A DNA stretch of 64,000 nt from Gammaproteobacteria bacterium. Lineage in GTDB: Bacteria > Pseudomonadota > Gammaproteobacteria > Ga0077536. Both the position numbers and the translations under genes were made by a program. Positions 5,539-44,113 of the stretch are shown here, piece after piece. The stretch spans positions 164,985-228,984 of the forward strand of contig JBHIYN010000001.1 of assembly GCA_041984235.1 (NCBI GenBank), read 5' to 3'. Every line of letters starts with the position of its first letter. Position 1 is the first letter of the stretch. The notes under the pieces are model-generated. The model saw nothing but the letters and a program-made list of their open reading frames with translations. It ran no database searches and was not told the DNA's origin.

Positions 5539-5540
5539 GT

Positions 5541-8500
5541 TCAGGGCACGGTGTCGCCGGTCGTGCCTTCGGCCGGCGCCCCGGCCGCGGCATCCGTGGC
5601 CGGGGCGTCGTCCTGGTAGGGGTGCGGATCGTCGCCCAGCCAGCGGTGCTTGATGTTGCCGATGAGGCCGGACAGCGGCCGCGTGACACCGCCCTTGACG
5701 GTGCCGTCGGCCGCGGCCTGCACGATCTCGGCGAAGTTCGACTCGGCGGCGGCCGGTGTGCCGCGGATACGGAACTGTGGACCCCTGTAGTAGCCGTACT
5801 CGTCCTGCGAGTCTTCCAGCAGGTCCATGCTGTAGAGGATGGCAGCACCCTTGCCGCTCATGTTGAGGCGCGCGTCGAGATTGAGCGGGCTGTCGAGAAT
5901 GTCCTTGCCGTCCGCGTAGTCGATCCCGCCATGGGCCGTGAGGCTGATGGTCGGGCTCTGCACCAGGAACTGCCGGATGACGATGTCGCGGCTGTCGTCG
6001 CGCACCACGTGGATGTCGATGCGGTCGTAGTCGATGACCTGGATGTAGTTGACCAGGCGTGACAGGGCGCCCGCGCCAAAGCCGCCGGTCGGCAGGTAGG
6101 AGAGCCCCTCGCCGACCACGCCGAGCACGTCGGAAGCGCCCGACATCAGCGCGCTGTCCGGCGGCAGCGGCCGGAACAGCCCGGCACGGCTGGCGAGCTT
6201 CATATCGAACAACAGCTCGTTGCGGTACTGGGCCATGTTCGGAGACTGTCCGTAGCCGTTCACGGCGACGCTGAACAGGCCCTCCACCCGCGGCTTGCTG
6301 CCCGGCACCAGCTCGGTGAAGAACTGGTTGAGGTCGAACTCCTTGATCGTGCCTGCAAGCTGCAGGTCATAGGGCGCGGCGCTGCCGGCATTGAAATCGA
6401 GTGCACCGTCGAAACGCATCGGGCTGTCGTGGAAGTCGGCGCCGAGCTCGGACAGGGTCAGGCGGGTCGGCGTGAGATCGATCTTGCCGGCCACGTCGTC
6501 GAAGATGACGTAATCGGTGTAGTAGAGGCTGTCGATACGGTAGTCGACCCGGGCCGCGTAGGGCAGCAGGTCCCAGAAGGCGCGCTGGTCGGGCTCGGTC
6601 GCTGCCGCCACCGGCCGCACCGTCGCCGGCTCGGCGTCCGCGTCCTGCTTGCGGTCTTTCTTGCCGCGTTTCATCGCCGTCTTGCCGCGCGGCGCGGCGA
6701 TCGCGTCCAGCGCCGCCAGCACGTCGTTCAGGTAGAAGCGCCCGGAGCGGAAATCCAGCTCGAGCAGCGCCTGCTCCGCGTCGCTCGGGTCGTAGGTCGC
6801 GCGCAGCAGGCCGTCCGTACGTCCGCTGCGGCCTTCGCCGCCAAGCGGCATCTCGAAACTGAAGCCCACCCCATCTGGCTGCATGGCGCCGTCGGCGCGG
6901 GCCTGCATGCGGCCCACCGCCAGCGGCGAGTCCGCGGCAAGGTCGGCCAGGGTCGCGGTCCCGCCGATGCTGCCGTCCTCGTCGACCGTGGCTTCGAGCT
7001 GCAGCGCGCCGCGCGCGAGGCGGTGGCCGGGCAACAGCGCCGGTTGCTCCAGCAACGCCGGCAGGTGGCCGACGAGGCCGGCGCGCATGTGGCGCAGCGG
7101 CACGCGGTGCTGGGGCTCCAGGGCGAAGCTCATGCTGCCGCTGAGCGCGGCGTCGGCGTCTCCGGCGAAGGCCAGCGCGACCGTTTCCAGCGCGGCCTCC
7201 AGGCGTTGTCCCCGTGCCTCTATCTCACCCGCGGCGGTGAACGAGAAGGGGCGCAGCAACGGGCCGTCCGCGCCGCTCACGCGCACGCCGTCCAGGCGCA
7301 GGGCCTCGCCGAGGTCGGCGTGCAGGCTGTCACCGTCGGAATCGAGGGTCGCGCGTGCGCTGAGCGCGTCGAAGGCCAGCGGACCCAGGTTCACGAGGTC
7401 GGCAAGCAGGGCCGAGGACAGGTCCTCGACCTCGGCCGAGAAAGTCCCGCTGAGATGCCGGGCGAGCGGTTCGTCGGCGTCGATGTGCGGGCGCACGATC
7501 AGCGGGGTCGCGTTGGCCAGGCTGAGGAGGGTCCGTTGGTCGGCGGACAGTGCCGCCGTCAGCCGGGAAACGTCGACCCGGTCAGGGGTGGCGGCGAGGT
7601 CGTAGTCGAGATCGAGCCGCCAGCGGTGCTGCGGGTCGATGTCGCCCAGCGCCGCCACTAGCGCGGCGACGCGGTGCAGGGCATTGAGCGATACGCGGGC
7701 CGTGCCGCGCGCGCTGAGCGGCCGTTCGGCGCTGCCCTCGCCCAGCGGCACGCCGACCTCGCCCGCGCCCTGCAGCAACTCGACGCCGCCGACGCGCGCA
7801 TCCAGCGCGGTATAGCGGAGCGCCGCGCGCTCCGGGTGATAGCTGAGCTCGGGACGCACACTGAGCGATAGGCGCTCGACCAGCGCGCCGTCCGCACCGC
7901 GTACGGCCACGTCGCGGAGCCGCAGCGCCTCGCGGCTGGCGAGGCTGAGCTGTGCGTCGTCACCCGCGCTCAGCGTGAAGCTGCCGGCCTCCAGCGTACC
8001 GCCGATAGCGAAGCCCGCGACGAAGGGATCCAGCCAGGCCAGGTCGAGCGCCTGCAACTGCACCAGGGCGAGTTCACCGGCCGGGTTGCGCAGCGCCGGC
8101 GCGCCTGCGCCGAGGCCGATGGCAAACGGCTGCAGTGCCGATACCTGTACCAGCGGCGCCGCGCCGTCGTGCGCGACGGAGAATTCGAGCTCGCTGATCC
8201 GGATGCGCTCCGGCGCGGGTGCCAGCGCCGCGCGGAAGGCGGCGGCCAGGCCGGCGGGCAGGGTGTAGGGCTCCAGCCGCTGCGCCAGCGGCGGCACACG
8301 GGCCACGGCATCGAGGTCGATCTCGCCGCTGACGGTAACGGCAGGCGCGGCCGCGCCGGTACTGCCGCGCGCCAGCGTGGCGCCGGCCTGCAGCGTGGCC
8401 AGGATCGAGTCGCCGAGCGCCAGGCTGAGCGCGTCGAGCCCGATCTCGATGCGTTTCGCGCCGATCCGGGCGCGCGGGCGCAACGACACGCGGACGTGCT

Positions 8501-10022
8501 GCTCGATGCCGAAGGCGGGGGTCAGCGTCGCGGCCTCCACCCCCAGCGGCTGCAGCGGCCGCACGGCGAGGGCGCCGCCGCCGGTGACCAGCTCGAAAGC
8601 ACCGCCCAGGGCACCCTCGGCTACGGCGGGCTCCGCCAGCAGGCCGTTGAGCCACGGCAGCGGCAGCGCGGTCAGGGTCAGCGTGGCACGCGTTGCTTCC
8701 TCGTCCATGACGGCCGCGGGCTGGTCCAGGGGGACTTCGAGCGGGGCGCTCAGCGAGAATTCGATCAGCGCCTGCTCCGGCCCCCGCGTCAGGCGTGCAC
8801 CGGCTTCGTGCAGCTCGGCCCGGCCGTCCGCTAGGTAGGCGCCGAGCCGCGTGCCGAGGTTGAGCACGGTCGGCAGCCCGGTGGCCGGACCGAGTACGCG
8901 CTCCAGCTCCTCGATGCGCATGTCGCCCGCGTAGTCGGCGCCGACTGCGCCGCTGCCGAGGTCGGCGAGAAAGGTGCCGTGCCCGCGCTCGCTGAAGCGC
9001 GGCACGCGCGCTTCCGGCGCGTAGGCGAGGACCAGGCCGTAGTCGAAGCCGAGCTCGAAGTCGCCGGCGGCGACGTGCGCGTCGGCGTCGTAGGTACCGG
9101 TAACGCCGAGGCGGACGAGATCGCCGTCACCGCCGGGCTTGGCCAGCACCAGCTCGAAGCGGTCGCCCGCGATGCGGGTCGCCTCCGCTGCGTCCGGGTC
9201 GCCGGCGGGCTCGCGCAGCGGTGTGGCGCTGAGCTCGATCGCCACGATTTCCTCGTCCGGCAATGCCTGCGCCGCCACCAGCGCGAGCAGGTCCGCGGCC
9301 ACGGCGCTGATCGTGCCCGCGTCGCCCTGGGTCAGGCTGACCGGGCCGGCGACCTCGATGCGGGCGCCGTCGCCGGCGCGTGTCGCCACCAGGTCGAGAT
9401 CCAGCGTGCCGGTCGCTTGCGGCGCCAGGCCGCCGCCGCCGAGACGGAACTCGACCACGAGATCGGCGGCCGGCAGCGCCTCGCCGCTGATCGCGACCCC
9501 GTCCAGTGCCACTCCCCAGCCGTGGTCGAGCAGCGTGAACAGGCCCGGAAACGGCGGCGCTGGATCGGCCGCCGGCGGCATCCCGCGGGTGTCGATCCCG
9601 AGGCCGGCGATGGCGAGGCGATTCACTGCGACGACCCGGAACAGCGCCTGCCACGGCGAGAAACCGAGCTCGGCATCGCGCAGGTGCAGCACCACGCCCT
9701 GGTGCGCCAGCTCGAGACCGCTCACCGACAGCGACCATGGCAGCAGATGCACACGCTCCACCTCGAAGCGGTCGACCCGCGCGCCCATCTGGTCGCGCAG
9801 CACGCGCGTCTGCAGCCGCGGATGGAACAGCGTGACGAGCACCGCGCACACCAGCAGCGCGGTTATCGCGAGCGGCCAGCGGCGGCGATGCAGCCACTGC
9901 CGCAGGCGCGACGCCGGGAGTTTGTCGGTGGAGGTCACGGGGATCGGGGTCGGCGCGCCCGCCGTGGCGTCCCGCGGATGGTCGGGTGCCCGCTGGCGCG
10001 AAGAAGCTTGTGGGAGCGGCAT
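5541..10022 (-). CDS. AsmA/YhdP-like giant envelope protein (1493 aa)
   Basis: A single N-terminal transmembrane helix (WPLAITALLVCAVLVTLF) is followed by a very long Ala/Gly/Leu-rich repetitive beta-rich region and an AsmA-like C-terminal region. The start is uncertain. Confidence 0.6.
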   Translation of the reverse strand: MPLPQASSRQRAPDHPRDATAGAPTPIPVTSTDKLPASRLRQWLHRRRWPLAITALLVCAVLVTLFHPRLQTRVLRDQMGARVDRFEVERVHLLPWSLSVSGLELAHQGVVLHLRDAELGFSPWQALFRVVAVNRLAIAGLGIDTRGMPPAADPAPPFPGLFTLLDHGWGVALDGVAISGEALPAADLVVEFRLGGGGLAPQATGTLDLDLVATRAGDGARIEVAGPVSLTQGDAGTISAVAADLLALVAAQALPDEEIVAIELSATPLREPAGDPDAAEATRIAGDRFELVLAKPGGDGDLVRLGVTGTYDADAHVAAGDFELGFDYGLVLAYAPEARVPRFSERGHGTFLADLGSGAVGADYAGDMRIEELERVLGPATGLPTVLNLGTRLGAYLADGRAELHEAGARLTRGPEQALIEFSLSAPLEVPLDQPAAVMDEEATRATLTLTALPLPWLNGLLAEPAVAEGALGGAFELVTGGGALAVRPLQPLGVEAATLTPAFGIEQHVRVSLRPRARIGAKRIEIGLDALSLALGDSILATLQAGATLARGSTGAAAPAVTVSGEIDLDAVARVPPLAQRLEPYTLPAGLAAAFRAALAPAPERIRISELEFSVAHDGAAPLVQVSALQPFAIGLGAGAPALRNPAGELALVQLQALDLAWLDPFVAGFAIGGTLEAGSFTLSAGDDAQLSLASREALRLRDVAVRGADGALVERLSLSVRPELSYHPERAALRYTALDARVGGVELLQGAGEVGVPLGEGSAERPLSARGTARVSLNALHRVAALVAALGDIDPQHRWRLDLDYDLAATPDRVDVSRLTAALSADQRTLLSLANATPLIVRPHIDADEPLARHLSGTFSAEVEDLSSALLADLVNLGPLAFDALSARATLDSDGDSLHADLGEALRLDGVRVSGADGPLLRPFSFTAAGEIEARGQRLEAALETVALAFAGDADAALSGSMSFALEPQHRVPLRHMRAGLVGHLPALLEQPALLPGHRLARGALQLEATVDEDGSIGGTATLADLAADSPLAVGRMQARADGAMQPDGVGFSFEMPLGGEGRSGRTDGLLRATYDPSDAEQALLELDFRSGRFYLNDVLAALDAIAAPRGKTAMKRGKKDRKQDADAEPATVRPVAAATEPDQRAFWDLLPYAARVDYRIDSLYYTDYVIFDDVAGKIDLTPTRLTLSELGADFHDSPMRFDGALDFNAGSAAPYDLQLAGTIKEFDLNQFFTELVPGSKPRVEGLFSVAVNGYGQSPNMAQYRNELLFDMKLASRAGLFRPLPPDSALMSGASDVLGVVGEGLSYLPTGGFGAGALSRLVNYIQVIDYDRIDIHVVRDDSRDIVIRQFLVQSPTISLTAHGGIDYADGKDILDSPLNLDARLNMSGKGAAILYSMDLLEDSQDEYGYYRGPQFRIRGTPAAAESNFAEIVQAAADGTVKGGVTRPLSGLIGNIKHRWLGDDPHPYQDDAPATDAAAGAPAEGTTGDTVP

Positions 10023-29381: not shown

Positions 29382-29909
29382 ATGAGTATCGAATTCGTCG
29401 ACCCACGTGGCGAGACACGGCGCGCCGCGCAAGCCTATGAACATGTCCTCGACGTCACCGTGCCGGCGACCATCGGCCTGCTGGCCAACGGCTTTCCCGA
29501 CTCGGTCGCGTTCCTGGACGCGGTCGAGGTCGCTCTGGGCGAGGCGCTGCCGCAGGCGAGCTTCCGCCGCTACGCCAAGCCGGGCGCCTCGGCGCCGGCC
29601 GACAGCGCGCTGGTCGCCCGCATCGCGGCCGAGTGCGATGCGCTGGTGACCGCCTACGGGCACTGAGGCAGCTGCACATCCGGCACCGTGCGTGACGGCA
29701 TTGCACTGGCCCGCGAGGGGCGCCCGGCGGTGGCCTTCGTGACCACCAAGTTCGAGCCGCAGGGCGACTTCGTCGCCCGCGCCGAGGGCATGCCCGACGT
29801 GCCTCGCGTGATCGTGCCGCACCCGGTGGCCGGCATCGGTGCTGCCGCCATGGCCGCGCTGGCGCGCGACATCGCCGTCACCGTGGTCGAACGGCTGCGC
29901 GCCGGATGA
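29382..29909 (+). CDS. UGSC-motif selenoprotein; TGA at 29664..29666 read as selenocysteine
   Basis: Track ORFs 29382..29666 and 29688..29909 are in the same frame, separated only by one TGA. Read-through gives '...AYGH-U-GSC-TSGTVRDGIALAREG...'. There is a GGAGAA SD before 29382. The gene is co-oriented with selA and selB downstream, and tRNA-Sec is present in the window. Confidence 0.75.
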
Positions 29910-30973
29910 GCGCGCTGCTCAGCGCGGCCGATGCCGATGCCGCACTCGAGCGACTGCACGCCCTGCGCTGCACGGACGGCCTGCCGGTGGTCATTCCGAC
30001 CCCCGAGCGCGTCTCGCGGCTGGTGCTCGCGAGCGGGCTGGACGCCGACATCGAGCTCGGCGTGATGGGGCCGGGTTATGGCGTCGCCACCGTGGAGAAG
30101 GTTGCCGCCTGCGCGGTCATGGCCGGCTGCCTGCCCGACCACATGCCGGTGGTCGCGGCCGCCGTGCGCGCGGTGTGCCGGCCCGAGTTCGATCTCACCG
30201 AGATGCAGTGCACCACGCATGCCATCGCACCGCTGGTCGTGGTCAACGGTCCGGCGCGCGCGGCCGGCGGCTTCGCCTCCGGCTTCGGGCTGATGGGGCC
30301 CGGCCACCGCGCCAACGCCAGCGTCGGCCGCGCCCTGCGCCTGGCCATGATCAACATCGGCGGCGCGCGCCCGGGCGAATCCGACATGGCCATCCACGGC
30401 TCGCCGGCCAAGTTCTCGCTGTGCTTTGCCGAGGACGAGGCGGCCTCGCCCTTCGCGCCGCTGCACACGACCTTCGGCTACGCGCCCGGCGACAGCGCGG
30501 TCATGGTGCTCGGCGTCGAGGGCCCGCACTCGGTGCTGTTCAGCGGCGATGCCGGCGATAGCGCGTCGGCCGAGGCCCTGCTCGACACCCTGGCCGCGGT
30601 GATCGCCAATCGCGGCAGCAACAACTCCTACCTCGGCGGCCGCGCCGCGGTCGCGCTGGTGCTCAATCCCGAGCATGCCGCGATCCTGGCCGGGGCCGGT
30701 CATGGCCGCGAGTCCGTGCAGCAGGAGCTCGCCGCGCGCGCGGTGACCCCGCGCGAAATCCTGCAGCGCCTCAATCCGAAGATGCTGCAGGGCGAGGAAG
30801 CCCTGATCCCGGCAGTGCGCGATCCGGCCCGGGTGCACCTGATGGTGGCCGGCGCGCCCGGCCTGTACTCGGTCGTGATGCCGTCGTGGTGTGCCGGGCC
30901 ACACGGCAACGTCGCGGTGCACGCGGCGGTCGAGCTGGACCCGTACTGCGAATTACCCACGGCCTCCCGCTGA
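29906..30973 (+). CDS. conserved hypothetical protein (355 aa), translationally coupled to the UGSC selenoprotein
   Basis: A long intact ORF whose start overlaps the upstream stop by 4 nt (ATGA). Family not recognised from sequence; it is not SelD-like. Confidence 0.55.
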   Translation: MSALLSAADADAALERLHALRCTDGLPVVIPTPERVSRLVLASGLDADIELGVMGPGYGVATVEKVAACAVMAGCLPDHMPVVAAAVRAVCRPEFDLTEMQCTTHAIAPLVVVNGPARAAGGFASGFGLMGPGHRANASVGRALRLAMINIGGARPGESDMAIHGSPAKFSLCFAEDEAASPFAPLHTTFGYAPGDSAVMVLGVEGPHSVLFSGDAGDSASAEALLDTLAAVIANRGSNNSYLGGRAAVALVLNPEHAAILAGAGHGRESVQQELAARAVTPREILQRLNPKMLQGEEALIPAVRDPARVHLMVAGAPGLYSVVMPSWCAGPHGNVAVHAAVELDPYCELPTASR

Positions 30974-31040
30974 GCGCCGCGCCGCCGCGATCTGCTAGGC
31001 TGTGACGCTGCCGGGTGCAACGGCCCGGGGGGAGAATGTC

Positions 31041-32129
31041 ATGTCCGATCTGTATGCCGACGCCGCGGTCACGGTACGCGAGGATCTCGCCGCCGCGCAC
31101 GCGCGCAGCCTGGCCAGTTTTAGCGCGCCGGGAACCTGGTTCGACGGCGCGACCCGCGCCGGCCTGGCCGGCGAGGCGCGGCAGGCCCGCGCAGAGGCCG
31201 GCCTGCAGCCGGGCACGCCGCCGACGGAGGGGGGCGGCGCGGTGCCCGCGGCCGCCGCGCGCGTGGTCCGGCGGATTGCCGCCGACCCGACCGACCTCGA
31301 TCGCAGCCTGTTCGACGATGCCTGCGCCGAGGGTCTGAGCGAGGAAGAGTACGTCGAATGCGTCGGCATTGCCGCGCGCATCAGTAACCTCGACATGTTC
31401 GCGCGCGGCCTCGGCGTCGCACCGCGGCCGCTGCCGCCGGTCAGCGCCGGCGAGCCGAGCCGACGGCGTCCGGCCGCGGCGGTCGCGGAGGGCGCCTGGG
31501 TGGCGACGATCCCCAACGGTGAGGCCGGCGGCGCCGAGGGTGCCGCGCTCTACGGCGGGCAGTGGGCGGCCAACATCCTGCGCGCGCTCAGCCTGGTGCC
31601 CGCCGAAGCCGCGGACCTGATTGCCTTGGGCGACGTGCAGTACGTCTCGGTGGCCAACTTCATGGACTTCGGCTACTCGCACGACCCGGCCATCTCGCGG
31701 CAGCAGGTCGAACTGGTGGCGGCGCGCATCTCCGCGCTCAACGCCTGCTTCTACTGAACCTCCTGGCATGTGCAGCTGCTCCGTGCGAGCGGCCAGTCGG
31801 GACAGAAGACTTACGAACTGAAAGGGGTTACCGATCGTGCGCTCGCTATCGGCGTGGACGACGAGGACGTCTTGCTGGCCTTCGCCGACGCGGTCTTCGG
31901 CGGGCCGCAGGCTGCGCTCGACGCGGCGCGCAGCGCGCTGCGCCATCGCCTGGGTGACGGCGGCCTGGTCGAGGCCGCGATCACCGCGGCGAATTTCAGC
32001 CTGGTCGATCGCGTCGCCAACAGCATCGGTATTCCGCTCGATGGCATGGCCATCGAGCAGACGGCCGATTTTCGCGAACCGCTCGGCATCAACCGCTTCC
32101 CTTCGGCGCGCAATACGCTCGGCGGCTGA
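31041..32129 (+). CDS. AhpD/carboxymuconolactone-decarboxylase-like selenoprotein (CxxUxxxH); TGA at 31755..31757 read as selenocysteine
   Basis: Track ORFs 31002..31757 and 31770..32129 share a frame and are separated by one TGA. Read-through gives 'NA-C-F-Y-U-T-S-W-H', matching the AhpD core CxxCxxxH motif with Sec in place of the second Cys. A 'ggggggagaa' SD precedes the ATG at 31041. selA lies immediately downstream. Confidence 0.75.
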
Positions 32130-32159: not shown

Positions 32160-33584
32160 GTGAGCGACGGCGCCGAGGCCAACGCGGCGCTGCGGGCGGT
32201 GCCGTCGATCGACGAGTTGCTGCGCGGTGCCGATGCCGCCCGCCTGGTCGATGCCTGGGGCCGCGAAGCGGTCGTCGCGGCCTTGCGCGAAGCGGCCGAC
32301 GCGGCGCGCGCGGCACTCGCCGGGGGCGCTGCGGCGGCGCGTGCGCAGGCGTCGGCGGAGGCCCTGGTCGCGGACGCGGCCGCCCGCCTCGCGGCGCTGA
32401 TGGCGCCGGCGCTGAAGCCGGTGTTCAACCTCACCGGCACGGTGCTGCACACCAATCTCGGACGCGCGCCGCTGCCGGCCGAGGCGATCGCGGCGATGAG
32501 CGCGGCGGCCGGTGCCAGCAACCTCGAGTACGACCTCTCGACGGGACGCCGCGGCGATCGCGATGCGCTGGTCGAGGACTGGATCTGCCGCCTCACCGGG
32601 GCCGAGGCGGCGACCGTGGTCAACAACAACGCCGCCGCCGTGCTGCTGCTGCTGAACACGCTCGCGCGGCGCCGCGAGGTGCCCGTGTCGCGCGGCGAGC
32701 TGGTCGAGATCGGCGGCGCCTTCCGTATTCCCGACGTCATGGCGCGGGCCGGCAGCAAGCTGGTCGAGGTCGGTACGACCAACCGTACCCATGCGCGTGA
32801 TTTCGAGGACGCGCTCGGTGCGCGCAGCGCGCTGCTCATGAAGGTGCATACCAGTAACTACGTGGTCGAGGGTTTCACCGCCGCGGTCGCCGAGCCCGAG
32901 CTGGCGCGCATCGCGCATGCAGCCGGTGTGCCGTTCGTGGTCGATCTCGGCAGTGGCACGCTGACCGACCTGTCGCGCTTCGGCCTGCCGCGCGAGCAGA
33001 CCGTCGCCGAGACCCTGGCCAATGGCGCCGACCTGGTGACCTTCAGCGGTGACAAGCTGCTCGGCGGCCCGCAGTGCGGCATCATCGCGGGGCGCGCCGA
33101 TCTCGTGCGCCGCATCAAGAAGAACCCGATGAAGCGCGCCCTGCGCGTGGACAAGATCACGCTCGCCGCGCTGGGCGCGGTGCTGCGCCTGTACGGCGAT
33201 CCCGCACGCCTGCCCGAACGCCTGCCGGCGCTGCGCCTGCTGACCCGCGACGAGGCCGACATCCGCGCCGCTGCCGAGCGGCTGCTGCAGCCGCTGCGTG
33301 CGGCACTGGGCGCTGCCGCGACGGTCGACGTCGTCGCCTGTCGCAGCCAGATCGGCAGCGGCGCCCTGCCGGTCGACCTGTTGCCGAGCGCCGCGCTGCG
33401 CATCACGCCGCCGGGCCGGCGCGGGCGGGCACCGGAGCGGCTGGCCGCACGCCTGCGCGCGCTGCCGCTGCCGGTCATCGGTCGCATCGCGGACGGCGCC
33501 GTGCTGCTCGACCTGCGCTGCCTGGACGACGAGGCCGGATTCGTCGACCAGCTGGCGCTGCTGGGCGAGGGTGAAGCGCCGTGA
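32160..33584 (+). CDS. selA: L-seryl-tRNA(Sec) selenium transferase
   Basis: The PLP-lysine region '[20 protein letters not shown]', '[15 protein letters not shown]' and the N-terminal 'VPSIDELLR' are present. The start is GTG. Confidence 0.9.
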
Positions 33585-35494
33585 TCGTCGCCACCGCCGG
33601 CCACGTCGATCATGGCAAGACGCTGCTGGTGCGGGCGCTCACCGGTGTGGACACCGACCGCCTGCCGGAGGAGAAGCAGCGCGGACTGACCATAGAGCTC
33701 GGCTTCGCCTACCACGATCTCGGCGACGGCGAGATCACCGGCTTCATCGACGTGCCCGGCCACGAGCGCTTCATTCGTACCATGATCGCCGGTGCCAGCG
33801 GCATCGACGTGGTGCTGTTCATCGTCGCCGCGGACGACGGCCCGATGCCGCAGACCGCGGAGCATCTCGCGATCCTCGACCTGCTGGGGGTGCAGCGCGG
33901 GGTGGTCGCATTGACCAAGGTCGACCGGGTCGACGACGCGCGCCTGCAGGCGGTTACCGTCGAGTGCCGCCGCCTGTTCGAACCGACGCCGCTGGCGATG
34001 GCTCCGATCGTACCCGTTTCGGCGCTCGAAGGCCGCGGCATCGATCTGCTGCGCGAGGTGCTGCTGAAGCTCTCCGCCGAGGTGCCGCCGCGTGTGGTCG
34101 CAGGCAATTTCCGCCTCGCCATCGATCGCAGCTTCCTGCTCAAGGGCGCCGGACGGGTGGTGACCGGCACCGTCTTCTCCGGGCAGGTCGGCGTCGGCGA
34201 GGCGGTGTGTCACGTCCCGGGCGGCGAGAGCGTGCGGGTGCGCGGCATCCACGCCCAGAACCACGAGGCGGAGTCGGCCGGCGCCGGCCTGCGCACCGCG
34301 CTCAACCTGGCCGGCAGCGGGCTGCGCGACGGCGATCTGCATCGCGGTGACTGGATCGTCGCTGACGGCGCCGCGTTCTCCACCCGCCGGCTCGACGCCA
34401 TGCTGCGCGTGCTGCCGGGGGAGAGCCGGGCGCTGCGCAATCGCACCCCGGTGCACGTGCACGTCGGCGCCGCCGACGTCACCGGCCGCGTCGTGACCTT
34501 CGACGGCAAGGCCATAGAGCCCGGCGCGGAGGCGCCGGTGCAGTTGCTGCTCGACCGCGAGCTGCACGCGGTCCACGGCGACCGCATCGTGCTGCGCGAC
34601 CAGTCGGCGCGGCGTACCCTGGGCGGCGGCACGGTCATCGATCCGGTGCCCGACGTCCGCGGCCGCTCGCGCAGCGAGCGCGTACGTTACCGTGAAGCGA
34701 TGTCGTGTGACGACCCGGCCGCGGCCCTGGACGCGGCCCTGGCGGCGCTCCCCGACGGCATCGAGCTCGATCGCTTCAGTCGCTGCTGGAATCTTACCGC
34801 CGCGGAGGCCGAGGCACTGTTCGCGCGCAGCGCGATGGTGCGCGTCGACCGCGGCGACGTGCGGCTCGGTTTCGAGCCGGCGCGCTGGCAGGCCCTGCAG
34901 GACATGCTGCCGCCGGCGGTGGCGGCGGTTCATGCCGAGGCGCCCGACCGCCCCGGTGCCAGCGAGGCCGAGATCAACCGCAAGCTGCCCGAGCGCCTGC
35001 GTCCCGCACTGCTCGCGCTGCTCGTCGAACAGCTCGTCGCGGCCGGTACCCTGGAACGCAACGGCGCCGTGGTGCGCGTGCCCGGTCACGCTGTGCAGCG
35101 CTCGCCGGCCGACGAGAAGCTGTGGCGGCGGGTCGGGCCGATCCTCGAAAAGGCCGCGTTGAAGGCGCCGGTGGTGCATGACCTGCACGAGGCGCTGCAC
35201 ATCGACCTCAAGCTGCTGGAGGGTTTCCTCGGGCGCTCTGCGCAGCAGGGTTACCTGGTGCGCGTGAGCGCCAAGCGTTACTTCCTGCCGGACAGCATGC
35301 GCACTTTCGAGACCATCGTGCTGGAGCTTGCGCGCACCCAGCCGGATGGCGTATTCACCGTTGCCGATTTTCGTAACCGCGCCGGCATCGGCCGCAATGC
35401 GGTGGTCGAGATCCTGGAATACTTCGACCGCGTCGGCCTGACCCGGCGCCACGGCCAGGTGCGCCGGGTCGTCGGCACGCCCACCCATCTCTGA
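33581..35494 (+). CDS. selB: selenocysteine-specific translation elongation factor
   Basis: The GTPase G1 motif '[16 protein letters not shown]', 'DVPGHERFI' and the long C-terminal winged-helix extension are present. It overlaps selA by 4 nt (GTGA). Confidence 0.9.
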
Positions 35495-36829: not shown

Positions 36830-36925
36830 GGAAGAGCATCGCCACCCGGTGGGGCGCCCGGTCTTCAAAACCGGTGAGACGGCCGCAGGGTCGTCTGGCA
36901 GGTTCGACTCCTGCCTCTTTCGCCA
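36830..36925 (+). tRNA. selC: tRNA-Sec (anticodon UCA)
   Basis: The 96-nt sequence is 'GGAAGAGC...GGTCTTCAAAACC...GCAGGTTCGACTCCTGC...CTCTTTCGCCA'. The anticodon loop is 'CUUCAAA' with anticodon UCA. It has a long variable arm and an extended acceptor, and the T-arm is identical to E. coli selC from memory. Confidence 0.85.
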
Positions 36926-37485: not shown

Positions 37486-38088
37486 TCAGCCGTCCGTCTC
37501 GCTGACCTCGATACCGCTGGTAAGGTCCGCCGCGGCGCTCGCCGCGGGCGTCGCCTTGAGCATGATGTGCAGCACGTTGCCGAGCTTCGCCTGCAGCGCT
37601 TCGTCGGCGATCTTCGGCAGGATCACGGGGAAGCTGACCAGCTCGATGTAGCTGTCGTCGATCAGCACCAGGGGCACGCGCCGCTTGACCTCCATGATGG
37701 TGCGGAACACGGCCGCGAACTCGCCGACCAGGGCGTACTGGTCGTCGCGCCGGATCTGCTCCAGCAGGCGCTGCTCGGAGATCGAGGAGATCCCCTTGCG
37801 CAGGTGGTAGCCGGCATCGGTCTCGCCGATGTCGTCGAACCACTTGCCGTAGAAGGGCATGCTGCCGTGCCAGTCGACGCCGAGCTGAGGGTCGGGCAGG
37901 CCGACGCGGCCGATGACGGGCACCTCGCTCGCGCTGAAGCTGCCTTCGTCCTCGATCTCGACATTGTCGCCAATGCTGCGTATGCGGCTGACCGCGTAGC
38001 CGCTCGGCTTGGCGACGGCAATGAGGGTGCGGCGCAGGCCGAGACCTGCGAGCTTCTTCGCCACCGCCATGCGCTTCGAGCCGGGCAT
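37486..38088 (-). CDS. hypothetical protein (200 aa)
   Basis: An intact ORF immediately downstream of the Trx-fold selenoprotein on the same strand. Family not recognised. Confidence 0.5.
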   Translation of the reverse strand: MPGSKRMAVAKKLAGLGLRRTLIAVAKPSGYAVSRIRSIGDNVEIEDEGSFSASEVPVIGRVGLPDPQLGVDWHGSMPFYGKWFDDIGETDAGYHLRKGISSISEQRLLEQIRRDDQYALVGEFAAVFRTIMEVKRRVPLVLIDDSYIELVSFPVILPKIADEALQAKLGNVLHIMLKATPAASAAADLTSGIEVSETDG

Positions 38089-38209: not shown

Positions 38210-39388
38210 TCAGCGTACCGGCGTCAGGTCCGGTGCCGGGTAGTAGGGCGTATCGCCGAGCGCGTCGACCGCGGCCCAGAACTCGGGTGCGGTGTTGAGC
38301 TCACCGACCAGCTCGGGGTCCAGCATCATGCTCTGGCGGCGGTAGTTCCAGCTCTCCGGGCACAGCCGGGAGGCCTCGCTGAAGTGTTGCTTGGCCGCGT
38401 CCAGCGCGCCGCTGACGTAGAGCTGGCGGCCGAGGCGCACGTGCGCAGCCGCGCGCACCGCGTTCTCGTCCGGCCCGCGCAGACGGCGCCTGACCTCGTC
38501 CGGCGGCAGCACGTAGGGGCTGTCGGCACCGTTCTTCACCCAGTCACGCAGCGCGTCGATGTAGGCACAGCGCACGCTGGCGCCTTCGTTCGCGGCGGCG
38601 TCCGGGATCTCCATGGTCTCGCGGTTGAGGTGCCGCACCATGTCGATGGTGCCGGCGGATTCGGCCGGGCGCACGATGCGGCCCTGCTCGTCGATCCATA
38701 CGCTCTGCGGCACGTTGACCATGCCGTAGAGCTCGGCGACGAGGTGGTTCTCGTCGATCAGGCAGGGGTAGGTCGGCGGCTTCTGGTTCTGCCACAGCTC
38801 CGGTGCCCAGCCCATCAGGCGGGCCAGCATTTCCGGCCGCTCGGCGATGTCCAGGGCGCGGATGCTCTTTTCGACCGCGGCCTTGCCGGCGGTGTCGAAT
38901 GCGATGGCGAGGATTTCAAGTCCGTCGCCGTGCAGCTCTTCGTAGATTGCCTGCCACACGGGCAGGTCAAAGCTGCAGCCTCAGTAGGAGCCCCACGAGA
39001 ACATGAACACTTTCTGCCCGCGGTAGTCGGACAGGGAGTGCAGCCTGCCGTCGAGATCGGGCAGCGTGAAGTCGGGCGCCTCCAGCGACATCATCTGGTC
39101 GCGCAGACTGCTGACCGACTCGCCGAACGACCACGCGTCGTGCGTCTCGTCGCGCACCAGCGGCTGGTGCATGTGCTCGGCGAAGGCGGCGAGATCGACA
39201 CGGCCCTGGTCGTCGCGCCAGGCGTCGTCGGCGCGCACGCAGGCGTCGCCGCGGCACAGGCCCTCGGGTTGCAGTTTCCAGCCGGTTGCGGCGGCCAGGT
39301 CGTCCGGGCTGAGCCACAGATGCCCGCCGTCGGCAACCGCGTCCGCCACTTCGGTGACGCGGTCGTCGTAGAGAATCGTTGCGCTCAT
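38210..39388 (-). CDS. thioredoxin-fold (TlpA/peroxiredoxin-like) selenoprotein; TGA at 38981..38983 (minus strand) read as selenocysteine
   Basis: Track ORFs 38981..39388 and 38210..38959 share a frame and are separated by one TGA. Read-through gives 'APDFTLPDLDGRLHSLSDYRGQKVFMFSWGSY-U-GCSFDLPVWQAIYEELHGDGLEILAIAFD', with Sec at the position of the redox-active Cys after the beta-strand. A GAGGAGC SD precedes 39388. Confidence 0.75.
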
Positions 39389-39463
39389 GAATGCGCTCCT
39401 CGCTGTGCAAAAGGGACGCTGCGTACTCTAGCGTCCCGGCGCACGGGTGCAAAGGCGCGCGGC

Positions 39464-40462
39464 TCAGGCTTGCGGCGTTTCGCCCAGGAAGGCGCGGGCG
39501 GCGGCGTTGGCGCGCGCCGCCGGGCAGGCGCGGCTGGCGCCGATGAAGCCCGCGAGGTCGGTCTGCTCGATGGCATAGGGGTAGTCGCTGCCGGCGAACA
39601 CGCGACCCGGCGCGACGTGGCCGGCGAGGTAGTCGAGGTAGCCGTGGTCGTAGACCAGGCTGTCGTAGAAGAAGCTGCCGGCCTGCGCCAGCGGTGCGCG
39701 GGTCAGCGCCCCGTCGAAGCCCGCGCTGAGGCGGAAGCCCTGGCCGAGCCGTGCGGCGAGCGGTGCCGTGGCGCCGCCGCCGTGACTGAGGCCTATCCTC
39801 AGACGTGGATGACGCTCGGCGATGCCGCCGCGGATCAGGGTCATGGCGCTGAGGCCGGTGTCGACGGCGAAGGCCGCGAAGGGCACGAGATCGGGGAACG
39901 TCTGCAGACGATCGGCCGCGGCCGGGTGCAGGGCGTGTACGAACACCGCCAGGTCGAGCCGCTCGGCCTCGGCGAAGAACTCGCCGAAGCGCGGCTCGCC
40001 AAGGTAGGCGCCGTTGACGTTGCTGCCGAGCTCCACCCCGCTGAAGCCGTCGGCCTTCAGTCGCGCCAGCTCGCGCGCGGCCAGGGCGGGGTCCTGCAGC
40101 GGCACCATGCCGAGCGCGCGGAAGCGATCCGGCCGCGCCGCGACCAGCCCGGCGAGGAAGCCGTTGACGTGGCGCGCCATGGCGATCGTGTCGCCGGCCT
40201 CGAACCAGTAGGAGAGCAGCTCCGGCATCGGCGAGAGCACCTGCACGGCAATGCCGTCGCGGTCCATGTCGGCGATGCGCCGCGCGGCGTGCCAGGAGCG
40301 CGCGTCCAGCTCGCGGAAGGCCTTGCCCGCGATCTCGATCACGGCGTGTTCGTCGCCGTGCAAGCACAGGCACGGCCAGCGCGGGTTGCTCGCCGGCGAC
40401 GGATTGGCCGGGAAGCCGTCCGGGACGACGTGCGTGTGCACGTCGATGAGGCCTTCGGGCAT
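39464..40462 (-). CDS. amidohydrolase-2 family (ACMSD-like metal-dependent hydrolase/decarboxylase)
   Basis: The N-terminus 'MPEGLIDVHTHVVPDGFP' has the HxH metal motif. It is the real gene inside track ORF 39464..40888. Confidence 0.75.
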   Translation of the reverse strand: MPEGLIDVHTHVVPDGFPANPSPASNPRWPCLCLHGDEHAVIEIAGKAFRELDARSWHAARRIADMDRDGIAVQVLSPMPELLSYWFEAGDTIAMARHVNGFLAGLVAARPDRFRALGMVPLQDPALAARELARLKADGFSGVELGSNVNGAYLGEPRFGEFFAEAERLDLAVFVHALHPAAADRLQTFPDLVPFAAFAVDTGLSAMTLIRGGIAERHPRLRIGLSHGGGATAPLAARLGQGFRLSAGFDGALTRAPLAQAGSFFYDSLVYDHGYLDYLAGHVAPGRVFAGSDYPYAIEQTDLAGFIGASRACPAARANAAARAFLGETPQA

Positions 40463-40476
40463 GCGGTGCGCGCCCG

Positions 40477-41226
40477 TCACAGCATCGTGCTGCCGCCGTT
40501 GACGCTGATCACCTGCCCGGTGACGAAGCTCGCCTCGTCGCGCGCGAGGTAGGCGACCATGGAGGCGACCTCGTCCATGGTGCCCGGTCGTCCCATCGGG
40601 ATCACGTCGTTGAACTGCTTCACCCAGGGATCGTCTTTCGCCATCAGCTCGGCGACCATCGGCGTCGCCACCATGCACGGGGCGACGGTGTTGACGGTGA
40701 TGTTCTGCTGTGCGACTTCGCGCGCGACCCCGGTGGTGAGCGCATGCATGCCGCCCTTGGCAGCGTTGTAGGCGGCGTGCTCGGGCAGCCCGTTGCGCAC
40801 CGAGTCCGCACCGATCATGATGATGCGCCCGCCGCCCTGTTCGATCATCAGCGGCAGCGCCAGCCAGGTACACCACAGCGCGGTCCACAGGTTGCGGTCG
40901 ACGGTCTGGCGCAGGGTCTCCGGGGTGTGTTCCAGGAACGGGCGTATGACCCCGCCGCCGGCGTTGTTGACCAGGATGTCGAGGCGCCCGAAGGCAGCCT
41001 GCGTGTTCCCGATCAGCGCGCGCGCGGTGGCCTCCTCGCTGAGGTCGCCGCGGAAGGCGAAGCTGTCGGCGCCGAGCTCGGTGGCGACCGTCTCCACGTT
41101 GTCGGCGAGGTCGGCGATGGCGATCCGCGCGCCCTCGGCCCTGAGCCGCCGCGCGATGGCGAGACCGATACCGCCAGCGGCGCCGGTGACCAGCGCGGTC
41201 TTGCCGTCGAGACTGCCGCTGCCCAT
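40477..41226 (-). CDS. SDR-family oxidoreductase
   Basis: The Rossmann motif 'TALVTGAAGGIGLAIARRL', the catalytic 'YNAAKGG' and 'NNAG' are present. Confidence 0.85.
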   Translation of the reverse strand: MGSGSLDGKTALVTGAAGGIGLAIARRLRAEGARIAIADLADNVETVATELGADSFAFRGDLSEEATARALIGNTQAAFGRLDILVNNAGGGVIRPFLEHTPETLRQTVDRNLWTALWCTWLALPLMIEQGGGRIIMIGADSVRNGLPEHAAYNAAKGGMHALTTGVAREVAQQNITVNTVAPCMVATPMVAELMAKDDPWVKQFNDVIPMGRPGTMDEVASMVAYLARDEASFVTGQVISVNGGSTML

Positions 41227-41227
41227 C

Positions 41228-42133
41228 TCAGGCCGCCAGTGCTTCGATCGCACCGGTGGCGCCGAAGCGCGCCTCGGGCACCGCGCCCCAGTAGTCGATC
41301 GACTCCAGTGCCATCGGCAGGCGCCGCGGTTCGCGCGGGTCGCGCTCCGGGAACTCCTCCATGCCGAAGCTGAACTCCAGCGTCATGCCGTCCGGGTCGA
41401 GGAAGTAGAGGAAGATCGACTCCGACGGCGGATGCCGGCCCGGACCGAATACCACCGGCACGTCGAGCTTCTTCGCGCGGTAGATGGCACGGCCGATGTC
41501 GTCGATGTCGGTGACCATGAAGTTGACGTGGTGCAGACGCTTGGCATCCGCCTTGCTCAGGCCGAAGGAGTGGTGCAACGGATTGGGGAAGCAGCGCATG
41601 AAGGTCACCGCGCCGTCGATGCGATCGGAGACGCGGTAGTTGAGCTGCTCGATGAAGAAGCGCTCGGCGGCGGCATGCTCGGCGACCCCGAGCACGACGT
41701 GACCGAGGCGCGCGATGCGGGTCAGGGTCGGCGCGAACGGGATCGCGGCGTCGGCCATGCGGTCGAAGTACTCGAAGGTTGCGCCGGAGTGGGGCTCGGT
41801 GATGCGGAACGCGCGGCCGACGCCGAGTGCGGCGCATTCCTCGGCCGCCACCGCGTGGGTGGTGATGCCGAGCGCGCCGAGGTGGTGGTGCAGGCGGTCG
41901 AGGTCGTCCGCCGTTTCCATCTCCCACGCCACGCGGCGCAGGCCGGGCGTGGCGCCCTGGTGCAGGATCACGTCGTGGTGGTGATCGGTGCAGCGGTAGA
42001 GGCGCTCGCCGTCGAGACCGTCGCCGGCCGGTGCGAGGCCGACCATGGCCTGGTGGAAGTCGTGTGCGCGGGCCAGGTCGCTGACGTTCAGCGCGACATA
42101 GCCCAGGCGGCGGTAGCGGAAATCGGGAGTCAT
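41228..42133 (-). CDS. extradiol ring-cleavage dioxygenase (VOC superfamily, catechol 2,3-dioxygenase-like)
   Basis: A two-domain VOC pattern is present ('LGYVALNVSDLARAHDFH', 'LGHVVLGVAEHAAAERFF', 'HHVNFMV'). The start is taken at 'MTPDFRYRRL'. Confidence 0.75.
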   Translation of the reverse strand: MTPDFRYRRLGYVALNVSDLARAHDFHQAMVGLAPAGDGLDGERLYRCTDHHHDVILHQGATPGLRRVAWEMETADDLDRLHHHLGALGITTHAVAAEECAALGVGRAFRITEPHSGATFEYFDRMADAAIPFAPTLTRIARLGHVVLGVAEHAAAERFFIEQLNYRVSDRIDGAVTFMRCFPNPLHHSFGLSKADAKRLHHVNFMVTDIDDIGRAIYRAKKLDVPVVFGPGRHPPSESIFLYFLDPDGMTLEFSFGMEEFPERDPREPRRLPMALESIDYWGAVPEARFGATGAIEALAA

Positions 42134-42146
42134 GGGCGGCGGTTCC

Positions 42147-42652
42147 TCAGACGATGATGCTGACCTTGCCCTGGTCGCGGATGTCGTCGGCATCGATGAA
42201 GCTGGTCTTGCAGCGGATGCGCAGGCCCTCGGTGGTGTTGGCGAGCTCGTAGAGGTGGTGACCGAAGAAGGTGTCGGTGCGCCCCATCTTGCTGCGCCAG
42301 GTGACGAAGTTGGCGCAGGCGCGGAAGCTGTCGTCACTGCCGCCGAGCACGCGCACGTTGCTGATCATGCGACGGCAGCGCGAATGCGGGAACTCGGCAT
42401 GCGCGGTGCGCTTGCCGAGGCGCTTAACGCGCTCGCACAGGCGGTGGTAGTCGTCGGCGACGTAGAACAGCGTGGTCGCCGGGTCGGCGTCGTCGTCGGC
42501 GCCGGCCGGCGGCACCAGGTAACGCGCGCCTTCGACGAACAGCGCCAGCCAATCCTCGAGCCGCCAGGCGTCGAGCAGGGCGGCTTCGTGGTAGAGGAAA
42601 TCCTCGAGCTCGGCGCGCGAGACCGCGGGCATGGCGTCGGCCGCGGCGCTCA
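42147..42652 (-). CDS. aromatic-ring-hydroxylating dioxygenase beta subunit
   Basis: A 168-aa SnoaL-like small subunit ('LEDFLYHEAALLDAWRLEDWLALF'). Its start overlaps the alpha-subunit stop (ATGA). Confidence 0.75.
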
Positions 42653-43933
42653 TGCCGCAGCCCCCGCGATGCGGCGCTGCCATTCGCGCCAGAAGGCGCG
42701 CATCTGCGCTTCGTCGTCGACGTTGGGCGCATCGCTGGCATAGCCCTTGGAGATGTCGTTCCAGCCGGCCTCGGCGAGGTTGCTGTAGCCACGCTGGCAC
42801 AGCGCCAGCGCCTCGCAGTCGTCGGGCGTGGCGAAGCCACCGGGCCCGAGGAACTCGAGGAAGTTGAACAGGCGCAGCTCGCGCATCTGCCGCGACTCGT
42901 CGCGCGGAGCCAGCGTCCAGGCGTTGACGCTTTGCCGGTCGGGCGCATCGGGGAAGAAGGTGCGCACGGTGATCGCCATGATGTCGTTGATGACGAGGTT
43001 GGGGAAGATCAGCATGTTGCGGTTGGTGGTCGCGATGCGTTCCGCGCGTGCCGCACCGAAGCGCTCGACCAGGCGGGCGCGCGTGGCCTCGACCTCGCGT
43101 GCGGCGTCCTCGCCCCAGGCCGGCACGGCCTGGGCGATGGGCCGGCCCCACGGCGCGCTGTACTGAACGACCGCGTGGCCGTTGCCAAGATCGTGGGCCT
43201 TGCCCTCGATGGCGACGTTGACCAGGGTGCCGGGCTTGGATTTCACGTAGTCGAGGTAGCTGGCGTGCGTCGGCACCGCGTGGTAGCCGTCGATGCTGTT
43301 CTCGCACAGCAGTTTCCAGTTGGCCTCGAAGCCGTACTCCTGGGTGCCGCCGACGATCTCCATACCGGCCTCGCTCTGGTCGAAGACGAGGTCGAGGTAT
43401 TCCTTCGCACCGGCGAGGTAGGTCTCGAGATCCTCGCCCTCGCGTTGAAAGTGTACGAAGTACAGACCGCGGTACTGCGCCAGGCGCGGTACCTGCACGA
43501 GGTCGTGCAGGCCGCAGCCGCGTGTGCCTTCGGCGTAGGCCTCGTCGCCGGGACGGTTGACCAGCTTACCCTCCAGGTCGAAGGCCCAGGAGTGGTAGAA
43601 GCAGCGGAAGAGGGCGGCATTGCCGGTTTTCTCGCGGCACACCATGGCACCGCGGTGCGGGCAGGTGTTGAAGAAGCAGCGCACCGTGCCGTCCTTGCCG
43701 CGGGTGAAGATCAGCTCGCGCCCGCCGACGTTGCGGGCGACGAAATCGCCCGGCTTCGCGATCTCCGACGCGTGTCCCAGATAGAGCCAGCACTGGTCGA
43801 AGATCAGTGCGCGTTCGCGTTCGAGGACGTCGGCATCGGTGAAGGCGCGGCGCGCGACACGGAACACGCCGCGCGCGCGATCGTCCTCCACGAAGGTCGC
43901 CGCGGGGCTTGGGTCGAGGGCTGCGTGTACCAT
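42650..43933 (-). CDS. Rieske non-heme iron aromatic-ring-hydroxylating oxygenase alpha subunit
   Basis: The Rieske motif 'CPHRGAMVC...CFYHSWAF' and catalytic-domain iron ligands ('DGYHAVPTH') are present. Confidence 0.85.
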   Translation of the reverse strand: MVHAALDPSPAATFVEDDRARGVFRVARRAFTDADVLERERALIFDQCWLYLGHASEIAKPGDFVARNVGGRELIFTRGKDGTVRCFFNTCPHRGAMVCREKTGNAALFRCFYHSWAFDLEGKLVNRPGDEAYAEGTRGCGLHDLVQVPRLAQYRGLYFVHFQREGEDLETYLAGAKEYLDLVFDQSEAGMEIVGGTQEYGFEANWKLLCENSIDGYHAVPTHASYLDYVKSKPGTLVNVAIEGKAHDLGNGHAVVQYSAPWGRPIAQAVPAWGEDAAREVEATRARLVERFGAARAERIATTNRNMLIFPNLVINDIMAITVRTFFPDAPDRQSVNAWTLAPRDESRQMRELRLFNFLEFLGPGGFATPDDCEALALCQRGYSNLAEAGWNDISKGYASDAPNVDDEAQMRAFWREWQRRIAGAAA

Positions 43934-44113
43934 TTAAGAAACCGTCTGACTGGTTTGTAAATTGGACTCTAGCGCGGGCCGGACGGGAAGTAAACGTTTA
44001 TTTCGCCCATTTGCCTGGTGATGGCGAGGTCAATAACATGGCGGCTGCCTTGTTTGTTTTAAGGCGACCCGCATGTCTCCGACGAGACCCATGACCACGG
44101 CGGCAGCGTTGCC
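43934..44113. promoter_or_regulatory. AT-rich divergent promoter/operator region between the Rieske operon and the TetR gene
   Basis: A locally AT-rich island in a GC-rich window. It contains the near-palindrome 'aaaccgtctgactggttt' and the perfect 10-bp palindrome 'taaacgttta'. Confidence 0.4.

Follow-up and report, generated by a model that had tools for sequence, protein, structure and literature searches.

A UGC-containing, ResA/TlpA-like selenoprotein predicted from a UGA-interrupted gene in a gammaproteobacterial selenium island

A gene that public protein sets hold as two pieces very probably encodes a single selenoprotein in a gammaproteobacterium of the Ga0077536 lineage. It lies on the minus strand, at 38210..39388, of a 64,000-nucleotide stretch of contig JBHIYN010000001.1 (positions 164,985 to 228,984 of the forward strand; assembly GCA_041984235.1), which we refer to as the window and number from its first letter. 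We read this locus as one gene for a 392-residue cytoplasmic protein of the known UGC-containing, ResA/TlpA-like thioredoxin-fold family, in which U denotes selenocysteine (Sec), read at residue 136 from an in-frame UGA codon (38981..38983, minus strand). The split goes beyond chance, because both halves align end to end with homologues of about 400 amino acids and the TGA recurs at the same alignment column.

The interrupted reading frame and its relatives

On the minus strand one frame spans 38210..39388 and is interrupted by a single in-frame TGA (38981-38983). The upstream open reading frame (ORF; 38981..39388) starts with an ATG at 39388-39386, preceded at a spacing of 7 nt by the Shine-Dalgarno sequence AGGAG (39396..39400, minus strand), and its 135 codons end in DYRGQKVFMFSWGSY (FSWGSY) before the TGA. 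Past this codon the frame reads GCSFDLPVWQAIYEEL (beginning GCSFDLP) for 256 further codons, up to a TGA at 38210-38212, and the joined product has 392 amino acids when the internal UGA is counted as one residue. The initial annotation had proposed that two TGA-split ORFs continue in the same frame to give a 392-residue read-through product, and that the N-terminal ORF alone would stop at the active site; sequence and translation agree with both statements, this ORF ending one residue before the active-site position. A mechanical ORF list begins the second ORF at a GTG (38959-38957, minus strand), 249 codons from the TGA at 38210-38212. This GTG is the Val codon of a conserved DLPVWQ segment and sits in the loop of the hairpin described below. 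No comparable Shine-Dalgarno sequence precedes it when the sequence is read directly, and the equivalent codon specifies Gly (GGN, not a start codon) in 25 of the 149 unique Sec-type sequences used for codon statistics.

With U entered as C, the joined product matches NCBIfam NF041054 ('ResA-like WAxxUGC motif-containing protein', WAxxUGC_long) from residue 26 onwards at 319.1 bits (E = 4e-95), above the curated cut-off of 300 bits for this equivalog (profile length 354), and its closest Cys homologue, P0002, likewise scores 319.1. The two Pfam families named in the initial annotation as worth searching, AhpC-TSA (PF00578; 1.4e-14, 54.5 bits against a gathering threshold of 26) and Redoxin, both match residues 103-239, and the GSHPx match is weak; PF00578 also takes in redoxins other than peroxiredoxins (Prx). 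Models of better-known relatives fall far below their cut-offs, with 67.1 bits against 170 for ResA (PRK03147), 28.4 against 230 for TlpA, similarly distant scores for StoA and PrxQ, and only 19-21 bits for the NCBIfam PrxQ/BCP models.

Protein searches returned full-length relatives of 380-419 amino acids, 47-56% identical over 93-100% of the query (named sources include Cryobacterium and Baekduia soli), and in the alignment both halves of the window gene are colinear with those of 397-419 amino acids. The other relatives are hundreds of fragments of about 249 amino acids, 67-76% identical and matching the C-terminal 64% only, which come from Sec-type orthologues that gene callers have cut in two and represent their downstream parts; the halves of the window gene itself are stored separately in public protein sets as P0001 (249 amino acids) and P0121 (135 amino acids). 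Among these relatives we found none in which the thioredoxin fold is complete without the upstream ORF.

In the alignment, the full-length homologues P0002-P0111 read W-G-S-Y-C-G-C, with Cys at the column of the window's UGA. The codon at this column was surveyed in two locus samples, one from a scan of one genome per species (80 loci) and one from metagenome contigs searched with Cys-type proteins as seeds (80 loci), and in six Cys-type genes fetched singly. TGA occupies the column at all genome loci in which the region is present (82, the window's own copies included) and, despite the Cys-type seeds, at 75 metagenome loci against a single TGC, giving 157 TGA and 7 TGC among the 164 related loci with the motif. 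The hosts of TGA loci include Gammaproteobacteria, Betaproteobacteria, Binataceae, Methylomirabilota/Rokuibacteriota, Myxococcota, Acidobacteriota, Actinomycetota and Dehalococcoidia, among others. Reduced to unique full-length sequences, the family comprises 129 members, 122 with Sec and 7 with Cys, and all conservation counts below refer to this set. Orthologues with Cys at the U position, which had been put forward as a point of comparison, therefore exist both as full-length WGSY-C-GC proteins and as the seven TGC loci, and the family does not consist solely of sequences that terminate at this codon.

Two sets of public records call for comment. An apparent full-length Trp form, P0109 (WASW-W-GC), was rejected, as it is really a TGA translated under genetic code 4. 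In the orthologue L170 (JGI contig Ga0672927_0277620, gene 235-1377), reading of UGA as Trp put Trp at the Sec position (codon 126) of the deposited 380-amino-acid protein, and codon 310 is a second in-frame TGA where the other aligned homologues all have Gly (G327). The contig has 56% G+C and an alternative genetic code is unlikely there; sequencing error or decay is the more likely source of the extra TGA. An alternative genetic code was also rejected for the window gene, the window having 70% G+C and carrying selA, selB and selC. Separately, Sec-type orthologues 68-71% identical to that of the window (L019, L020, L025 and L028; CAMCQE01, CAMATU01 and CAMAXW01) lie on contigs of metagenome-assembled genomes labelled 'Klebsiella pneumoniae', a label that looks wrong, their nearest relatives being uncultured Gammaproteobacteria.

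A candidate SECIS hairpin

Downstream of the UGA the transcript can fold into a candidate selenocysteine insertion sequence (SECIS) hairpin, UUG-A-CCUGCC-[CGUGU]-GGCAGG-CAA, at 38947..38970 on the minus strand (core stem and loop, 38950-38966). The stem CCUGCC begins 14 nt and the CGUGU loop 20 nt after the UGA, and the 6-bp stem is extended by 2-3 bp through pairing of UUG with CAA across a bulged A. Its minimum free energy (MFE) is -11.5 kcal/mol for the 24-mer (z = -2.5) and -9.3 kcal/mol for the 17-mer (z = -3.1). The published model for bacterial SECIS (bSECIS) elements specifies a loop of 3-9 nt, a stem of 4-16 bp, a G in the first two loop positions, a distance of 16-37 nt from UGA to loop and an MFE <= -7.5 kcal/mol (PMC13188914). 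The window hairpin agrees with every one of these constraints, with a 5-nt loop in which GU occupies positions 2 and 3, a stem of 6 bp and a distance of 20 nt, and the interval 38925..38980 (minus strand), singled out beforehand for a SECIS scan, thus contains a structure that fits the model. When the entire window was scanned with Rfam at gathering thresholds, tRNA-Sec was the only match and no SECIS family appeared, as would be expected from the poor coverage of bacterial SECIS elements.

All six stem pairs form in 128 of the 138 unique Sec-type sequences scored for pairing and five of six in the other 10, and across 79 genome sequences the six inner stem pairs are paired in essentially all cells. 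Plain conservation is uninformative here, because the hairpin overlaps the codons of D-L-(P/S)-(V/G)-W-Q. At synonymous sites, all 149 Sec-type sequences use CTG or TTG for the stem Leu, compared with 82 of 135 for a control Leu ten codons downstream. The Gln codon is CAA, which needs U opposite, in 10 of 25 sequences with Leu TTG and in none of 124 with Leu CTG (Fisher, 3e-9), and in six controls, in which TTG was paired with other AT-rich synonymous codons, p ranged from 0.05 to 1. The outermost pair changes from C-G to U-A: GAU goes with A after the Gln codon 12 times and with G nine times, and A in this place accompanies GAC only twice. RNA-level selection on the hairpin is likely but not proven.

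Protein architecture, proposed chemistry and competing explanations

The structure modelled with AlphaFold was that of P0002, 56% identical to the window protein, from a 31-sequence alignment; the window's own N-terminal ORF, P0121, was modelled as well. The P0002 model (mean predicted local distance difference test score, pLDDT, 92.1; predicted template modelling score, pTM, 0.90) has three packed parts. An N-terminal alpha/beta domain (residues ~1-100; 39089..39388, minus strand) holds the invariant Cys45-x4-Cys50, and no clear fold relative of this domain was recognised. It is followed by the ResA/TlpA-like thioredoxin-fold domain (38639..39082, minus strand; Pfam, Foldseek and HMMER), which carries W-G-S-Y-U136-G-C138 and the acid D141, and by a C-terminal all-helical, TPR-like domain (38213..38605, minus strand) with helices at ~265-377, a weak Pfam TPR_2 match at residues 313-345, the invariant R351 and the near-invariant Q352. 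The initial annotation had described an additional N-terminal domain of about 100 residues and a helical C-terminal extension, and both are seen in the model. The protein begins MSATILYDDRVTEV, with no signal peptide or membrane anchor, and the joined sequence contains no hydrophobic segment (maximum 19-residue Kyte-Doolittle mean, 0.86), so that the protein should be cytoplasmic, unlike ResA and TlpA.

Foldseek searches of the PDB with the P0002 model gave ResA, DsbE, TlpA and their kin as top matches (probability 1.00, TM-target 0.69-0.75; for ResA 1st9/2f9s, TM-target 0.74 and E about 2e-9), all covering the middle domain only. HMMER alignment to 3kcm, 4nmu and 4evm sets 'SWGSY-C-G-.-C-SFDLP' on 'FWATW-C-P-P-C-REEIP', placing the UGA on the first Cys of the WCxxC motif of ResA-type structures and a one-residue gap before the second. 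In this predicted register, U-G-C is a CxxC motif that lacks one residue and has Sec as its attacking residue. Asp141 aligns with a Glu three residues past the second Cys in 3kcm and 4nmu, which corresponds to Glu80 of Bacillus subtilis ResA, and the E80Q variant of ResA is among the Foldseek structural matches. Residues invariant in the 129 family members include W25, C45, C50, W132, U/C136, G137, C138, D141, W145, D212, R240 and R351, that is, both G137 and C138 of U-G-C never vary; P227 is the retained Pro of the loop facing the active site, C209 occurs in 90 of 129 members and C343 is not conserved. Pfam, the HMMER register and the ResA-like model all bear out the TlpA/ResA topology, with the UGA at the redox-active residue, that was first proposed for this gene. 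The accompanying suggestion that U-G-C may be an unusual Sec-based redox centre holds in that the motif differs from WCxxC, but the centre is not new and defines a catalogued family. The peroxidatic motif PxxxTxxC/U (PMC13188914) is absent, M129-F-S-W-G133-S-Y-U136 having Met at -7 and Gly at -3.

The family has been catalogued since 2008, when Zhang and Gladyshev described 'Prx-like (UGC-containing)' selenoproteins with pfam00578 and the motif UGC, to which the Global Ocean Sampling data contributed 46 Sec sequences and which were commoner in non-marine samples (PMC2398784). A 2022 review treats the 'UGC-containing Prx-like protein' as a subfamily apart from the UxxC/UxxU Prx-like proteins (PMC9312934), and a 2026 review also lists a UGC-containing Prx-like / TlpA disulfide reductase family protein (PMC13188914); both note that most of these predicted selenoproteins have no known function. 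A literature search on the name 'WAxxUGC' gave no match. Neither the UGC selenoprotein family nor its type of redox centre is new.

The window protein has in common with NF041054 a U-G-C motif with U encoded by TGA, a thioredoxin-fold core, the long three-domain architecture and the status of predicted selenoprotein, and it differs from the form in the family name by Gly instead of Ala after Trp and Tyr instead of Trp before Sec. With ResA, TlpA and CcmG (DsbE) (cd02966; 1st9, 1su9, 1jfu and 3gl3) it shares the same thioredoxin fold with the same insertion, the aromatic residue before the attacking residue, the acid three residues after the second Cys and the loop Pro (P227). Unlike these extracytoplasmic W-C-x-x-C proteins, however, it has Y-U-G-C, one residue shorter and with Sec for Cys, it lacks a signal peptide or membrane anchor, it possesses the N-terminal Cys-pair and C-terminal helical domains, and no cytochrome-maturation genes lie near its gene. 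The AhpC-TSA match and Sec at the first redox position are shared with Sec peroxiredoxins and Prx-like thiol:disulfide oxidoreductases (PF00578; TxxU, UxxC/UxxU), whereas the UGC motif and its spacing are not, and it is because of differing motif and spacing that reviews keep the UGC and TxxU/UxxC subfamilies apart (PMC9312934).

From the sequence evidence and from what is established about Sec insertion in bacteria, the UGA at 38981-38983 would be decoded by tRNA-Sec (selC), brought by SelB after binding the hairpin whose CGUGU loop lies 20 nt downstream. In the protein, Sec136 would take the position of the N-terminal attacking Cys of CxxC, at the start of helix alpha-1, and would attack a disulfide or another oxidised substrate; Cys138 would then act as the resolving Cys to give a selenenylsulfide across the single Gly, and the centre would be re-reduced. 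As Cys138 is one residue closer than in CxxC, this cycle would involve a small ring closed by a strained Se-S bond. Asp141 would occupy the position of the ResA-type acid. More speculatively, the invariant Cys45/Cys50 pair may recycle the U-G-C centre or co-ligate with it, and we consider it the most likely candidate for either part. A self-contained three-sulfur, one-selenium unit formed by Cys45-x4-Cys50 and U136-G-C138, serving as an intramolecular redox relay or a metal/metalloid site, is a rather unlikely extension of this scheme; if true, it would give the family a chemistry distinct from those of both thioredoxin-like reductases and peroxiredoxins. A single Gly between two chalcogen residues is also found in CXC motifs such as the CGC peptide that mimics protein disulfide isomerase and the CGC tail of Erv2; these are all-sulfur and outside the ResA-like fold, and their relevance to U-G-C is a lead only.

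Several points weigh against this account of the gene and its product. The window motif W-G-S-Y-U-G-C does not match the W-A-x-x-U signature in the NF041054 name, as Gly rather than Ala follows the Trp, and this W-G-x-x signature is the gene's sole departure from the known family. In the 129 family sequences that residue is Ala in 89, Gly in 39 and Ser in one, and NF041054 accepts the Gly variant; W-A-S-W-U-G-C is the form behind the family name, and W-G-S-Y-U-G-C occurs in the window's gammaproteobacterial clade and, with Cys, in the Cys forms. The hairpin stem also persists in the seven Cys-type genes (L097, L164-L169), with 6/6 pairs in four, 5/6 in two and 4/6 in one. Since four of the seven keep a perfect hairpin, the peptide and a GC-rich choice of codons account for part of the structure; its presence in these genes could stem from recent Sec-to-Cys conversion or from codon preference for DLPVWQ in GC-rich genomes. 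RNAalifold-style pair counts over the 79 genome sequences revealed no covariation above shuffles, a result of the overlap with the highly conserved peptide DL(P/S)(V/G)WQ, and the synonymous-site statistics take no account of phylogenetic relatedness. At the protein level, the chemistry of Sec136 and Cys138 is what we infer from the ResA-type alignment and thioredoxin-fold chemistry, the role given to the N-terminal Cys pair is speculative, and the biochemical function as a whole is only inferred. For the family at large, reviews record no experimental selenium incorporation for any member (PMC13188914, PMC9312934).

Two explanations would dispense with a selenoprotein altogether. The locus could be a pseudogene in which a Cys codon, TGC, has mutated to the stop TGA, leaving only a truncated, non-functional N-terminal fragment. 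This needs a one-base change, and the public records do hold the locus as two ORFs (P0001, 249 amino acids; P0121, 135 amino acids), but it is at odds with a TGA at the exact column in 157 loci from many phyla, with protein-level conservation of both flanks, with 122 Sec forms against 7 Cys forms, with the synonymous-site constraints on the downstream hairpin and with the adjacent Sec machinery. We hold it to be vanishingly improbable, and the comparative data effectively refute it. The mechanical ORF list, with its two ORFs, and the hundreds of ~249-amino-acid fragments in public protein sets could instead suggest two independent genes, one for a 135-residue protein and one for a 249-residue protein starting at GTG 38959. 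In that case, however, the first would stop one residue before the active-site position and the second would be without strands beta1-beta3 and the active site of the thioredoxin fold. The supposed start is moreover the conserved Val of DLPVWQ, is a Gly codon (GGN) in 25 of 149 sequences and lacks a Shine-Dalgarno sequence, and the Cys homologues are single polypeptides; there is next to no chance that two genes are present, and a single selenoprotein gene is the reading that we retain.

Two further explanations accept the selenoprotein and concern what it does. It might be a Prx-like or glutathione peroxidase (GPx)-like peroxidase, with a selenenic acid at Sec136 resolved by Cys138, and not a thiol-disulfide oxidoreductase. 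Sec is typical of peroxidase active sites, and an AhpD-related selenoprotein is encoded in the same island. The best Pfam match is to AhpC-TSA, with a weak match to GSHPx, and the family was first named 'Prx-like' (PMC2398784). Yet the PxxxTxxC/U motif is absent (Gly at -3, Met at -7), the aromatic residue at -1 and the WCxxC register match ResA/TlpA, the solved structures nearest to it are those of ResA, DsbE and TlpA rather than of a Prx, and the NCBIfam PrxQ and BCP models reach 19-21 bits only; we regard a peroxidase as unlikely. It is very doubtful that Sec136/Cys138 and Cys45/Cys50 form a four-ligand metal or metalloid site, for sensing, storage or detoxification, in place of a catalytic redox centre. 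CxC and Cx4C spacings do occur in metal sites, none of the four residues C45, C50, U/C136 and C138 varies among the 129 members, and the pTM of 0.90 for the P0002 model points to a compact multi-domain arrangement; on the other hand, no metal-related genes are conserved nearby, no neighbour being common to more than 9 of 79 loci, and the thioredoxin-fold acid and the overall ResA-like site are kept.

The selenium island and the wider family

The genes of the Sec machinery lie 1.3-6.8 kb from the selenoprotein gene, all on the plus strand. selA, for selenocysteine synthase (32160..33584; Pfam SelA 512.6 bits, Se-cys_synth_N), is followed by selB, for the Sec-specific elongation factor (33581..35494; Pfam GTP_EFTU, Beta-barrel_SelB, SelB-wing_2 and SelB-wing_3), and, after a beta-lactamase-family gene, by selC, for tRNA-Sec with the anticodon UCA (36830..36925; ARAGORN; Rfam RF01852 at 62.6 bits, gathering threshold 47). 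The measured distance of selC from the 3' end of the selenoprotein gene, 1285 nt, accords with the 1.3 kb given in the initial annotation. tRNA-Sec was found within 3 kb of the gene at none of 58 other genome loci, and the linkage to selC is particular to this genome. All-against-all clustering of the ORFs flanking the 79 related loci found no neighbour common to more than nine of them, and there is therefore no operon partner from which to deduce a function.

Two other genes of the window are split at an in-frame TGA. A UGSC-family selenoprotein gene (29382..29909, plus strand; PF24696, 159 bits), split at 29664-29666, reads ALVTAYGH-U-GSCTSGT when joined and, with 114 bits, narrowly misses the NF041046 cut-off of 125; in the output of gene callers it appears as separate proteins of 94 and 73 amino acids. 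An AhpD-related 'CFYUT' selenoprotein gene (about 31002..32129, plus strand; ISALNACFY-U-TSWHVQ), split at 31755-31757, adjoins selA directly upstream and matches NF041238 (cut-off 175) with 222.8 bits for its upstream part by itself and 105.8 bits for its downstream part. The apical loops after the window's three in-frame UGAs lie at 38956-38960 (minus strand), 29687-29691 (plus strand) and 31782-31786 (plus strand). Each hairpin has a 5-nt loop CGUG(U/C), 20, 20 and 24 nt downstream of its UGA, the loops of the other two genes being CGUGC. Such a common loop would fit recognition of the three hairpins by a single SelB, and CGUG(U/C) may be a genome-specific SelB recognition signature.

An ORF of 355 amino acids (29906..30973, plus strand), without a match in Pfam or NCBIfam, overlaps the stop codon of the UGSC gene (ATGA), starting 4 nt before its end, and the two are probably translated together. 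Baekduia soli (L166) also has a UGSC gene with an unannotated 345-amino-acid gene after it, near the Cys-type homologue. On the strand of the window's selenoprotein gene and 121 nt downstream of it, a 200-amino-acid ORF (37486..38088, minus strand) matches no family, and the flanks of the 79 related loci contain no homologue of it; it may be an orphan gene or no gene. Directly upstream, also on the same strand, lies an aromatic-compound degradation cluster (about 39464..44000, minus strand; 5027-9496 of locus L001) with the alpha and beta subunits of a Rieske ring-hydroxylating dioxygenase, a glyoxalase-fold dioxygenase, a short-chain dehydrogenase and an Amidohydro_2 enzyme. Its last gene ends 76 nt before the ATG of the selenoprotein gene, a context that is not conserved in other genomes.

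The finding leaves knowledge of selenoprotein families unchanged, and its value lies in mending a split annotation and in flagging an abundant family. Joining the 135- and 249-residue halves would restore a real enzyme at a locus of which hundreds of like are stored split, and the translation of UGA as Trp in one copy is a further annotation error in public records. For the organism, the joined gene brings to three the selenoproteins of a compact selenium island, whose other members are the UGSC gene, the AhpD-related gene, selA, selB and selC. The family itself is overwhelmingly Sec-dependent, with 122 Sec against 7 Cys forms in the unique full-length sequences sampled. Its U-G-C centre and invariant N-terminal Cys pair offer concrete handles for the biochemical study of a family that is widespread, mostly in soil and freshwater.

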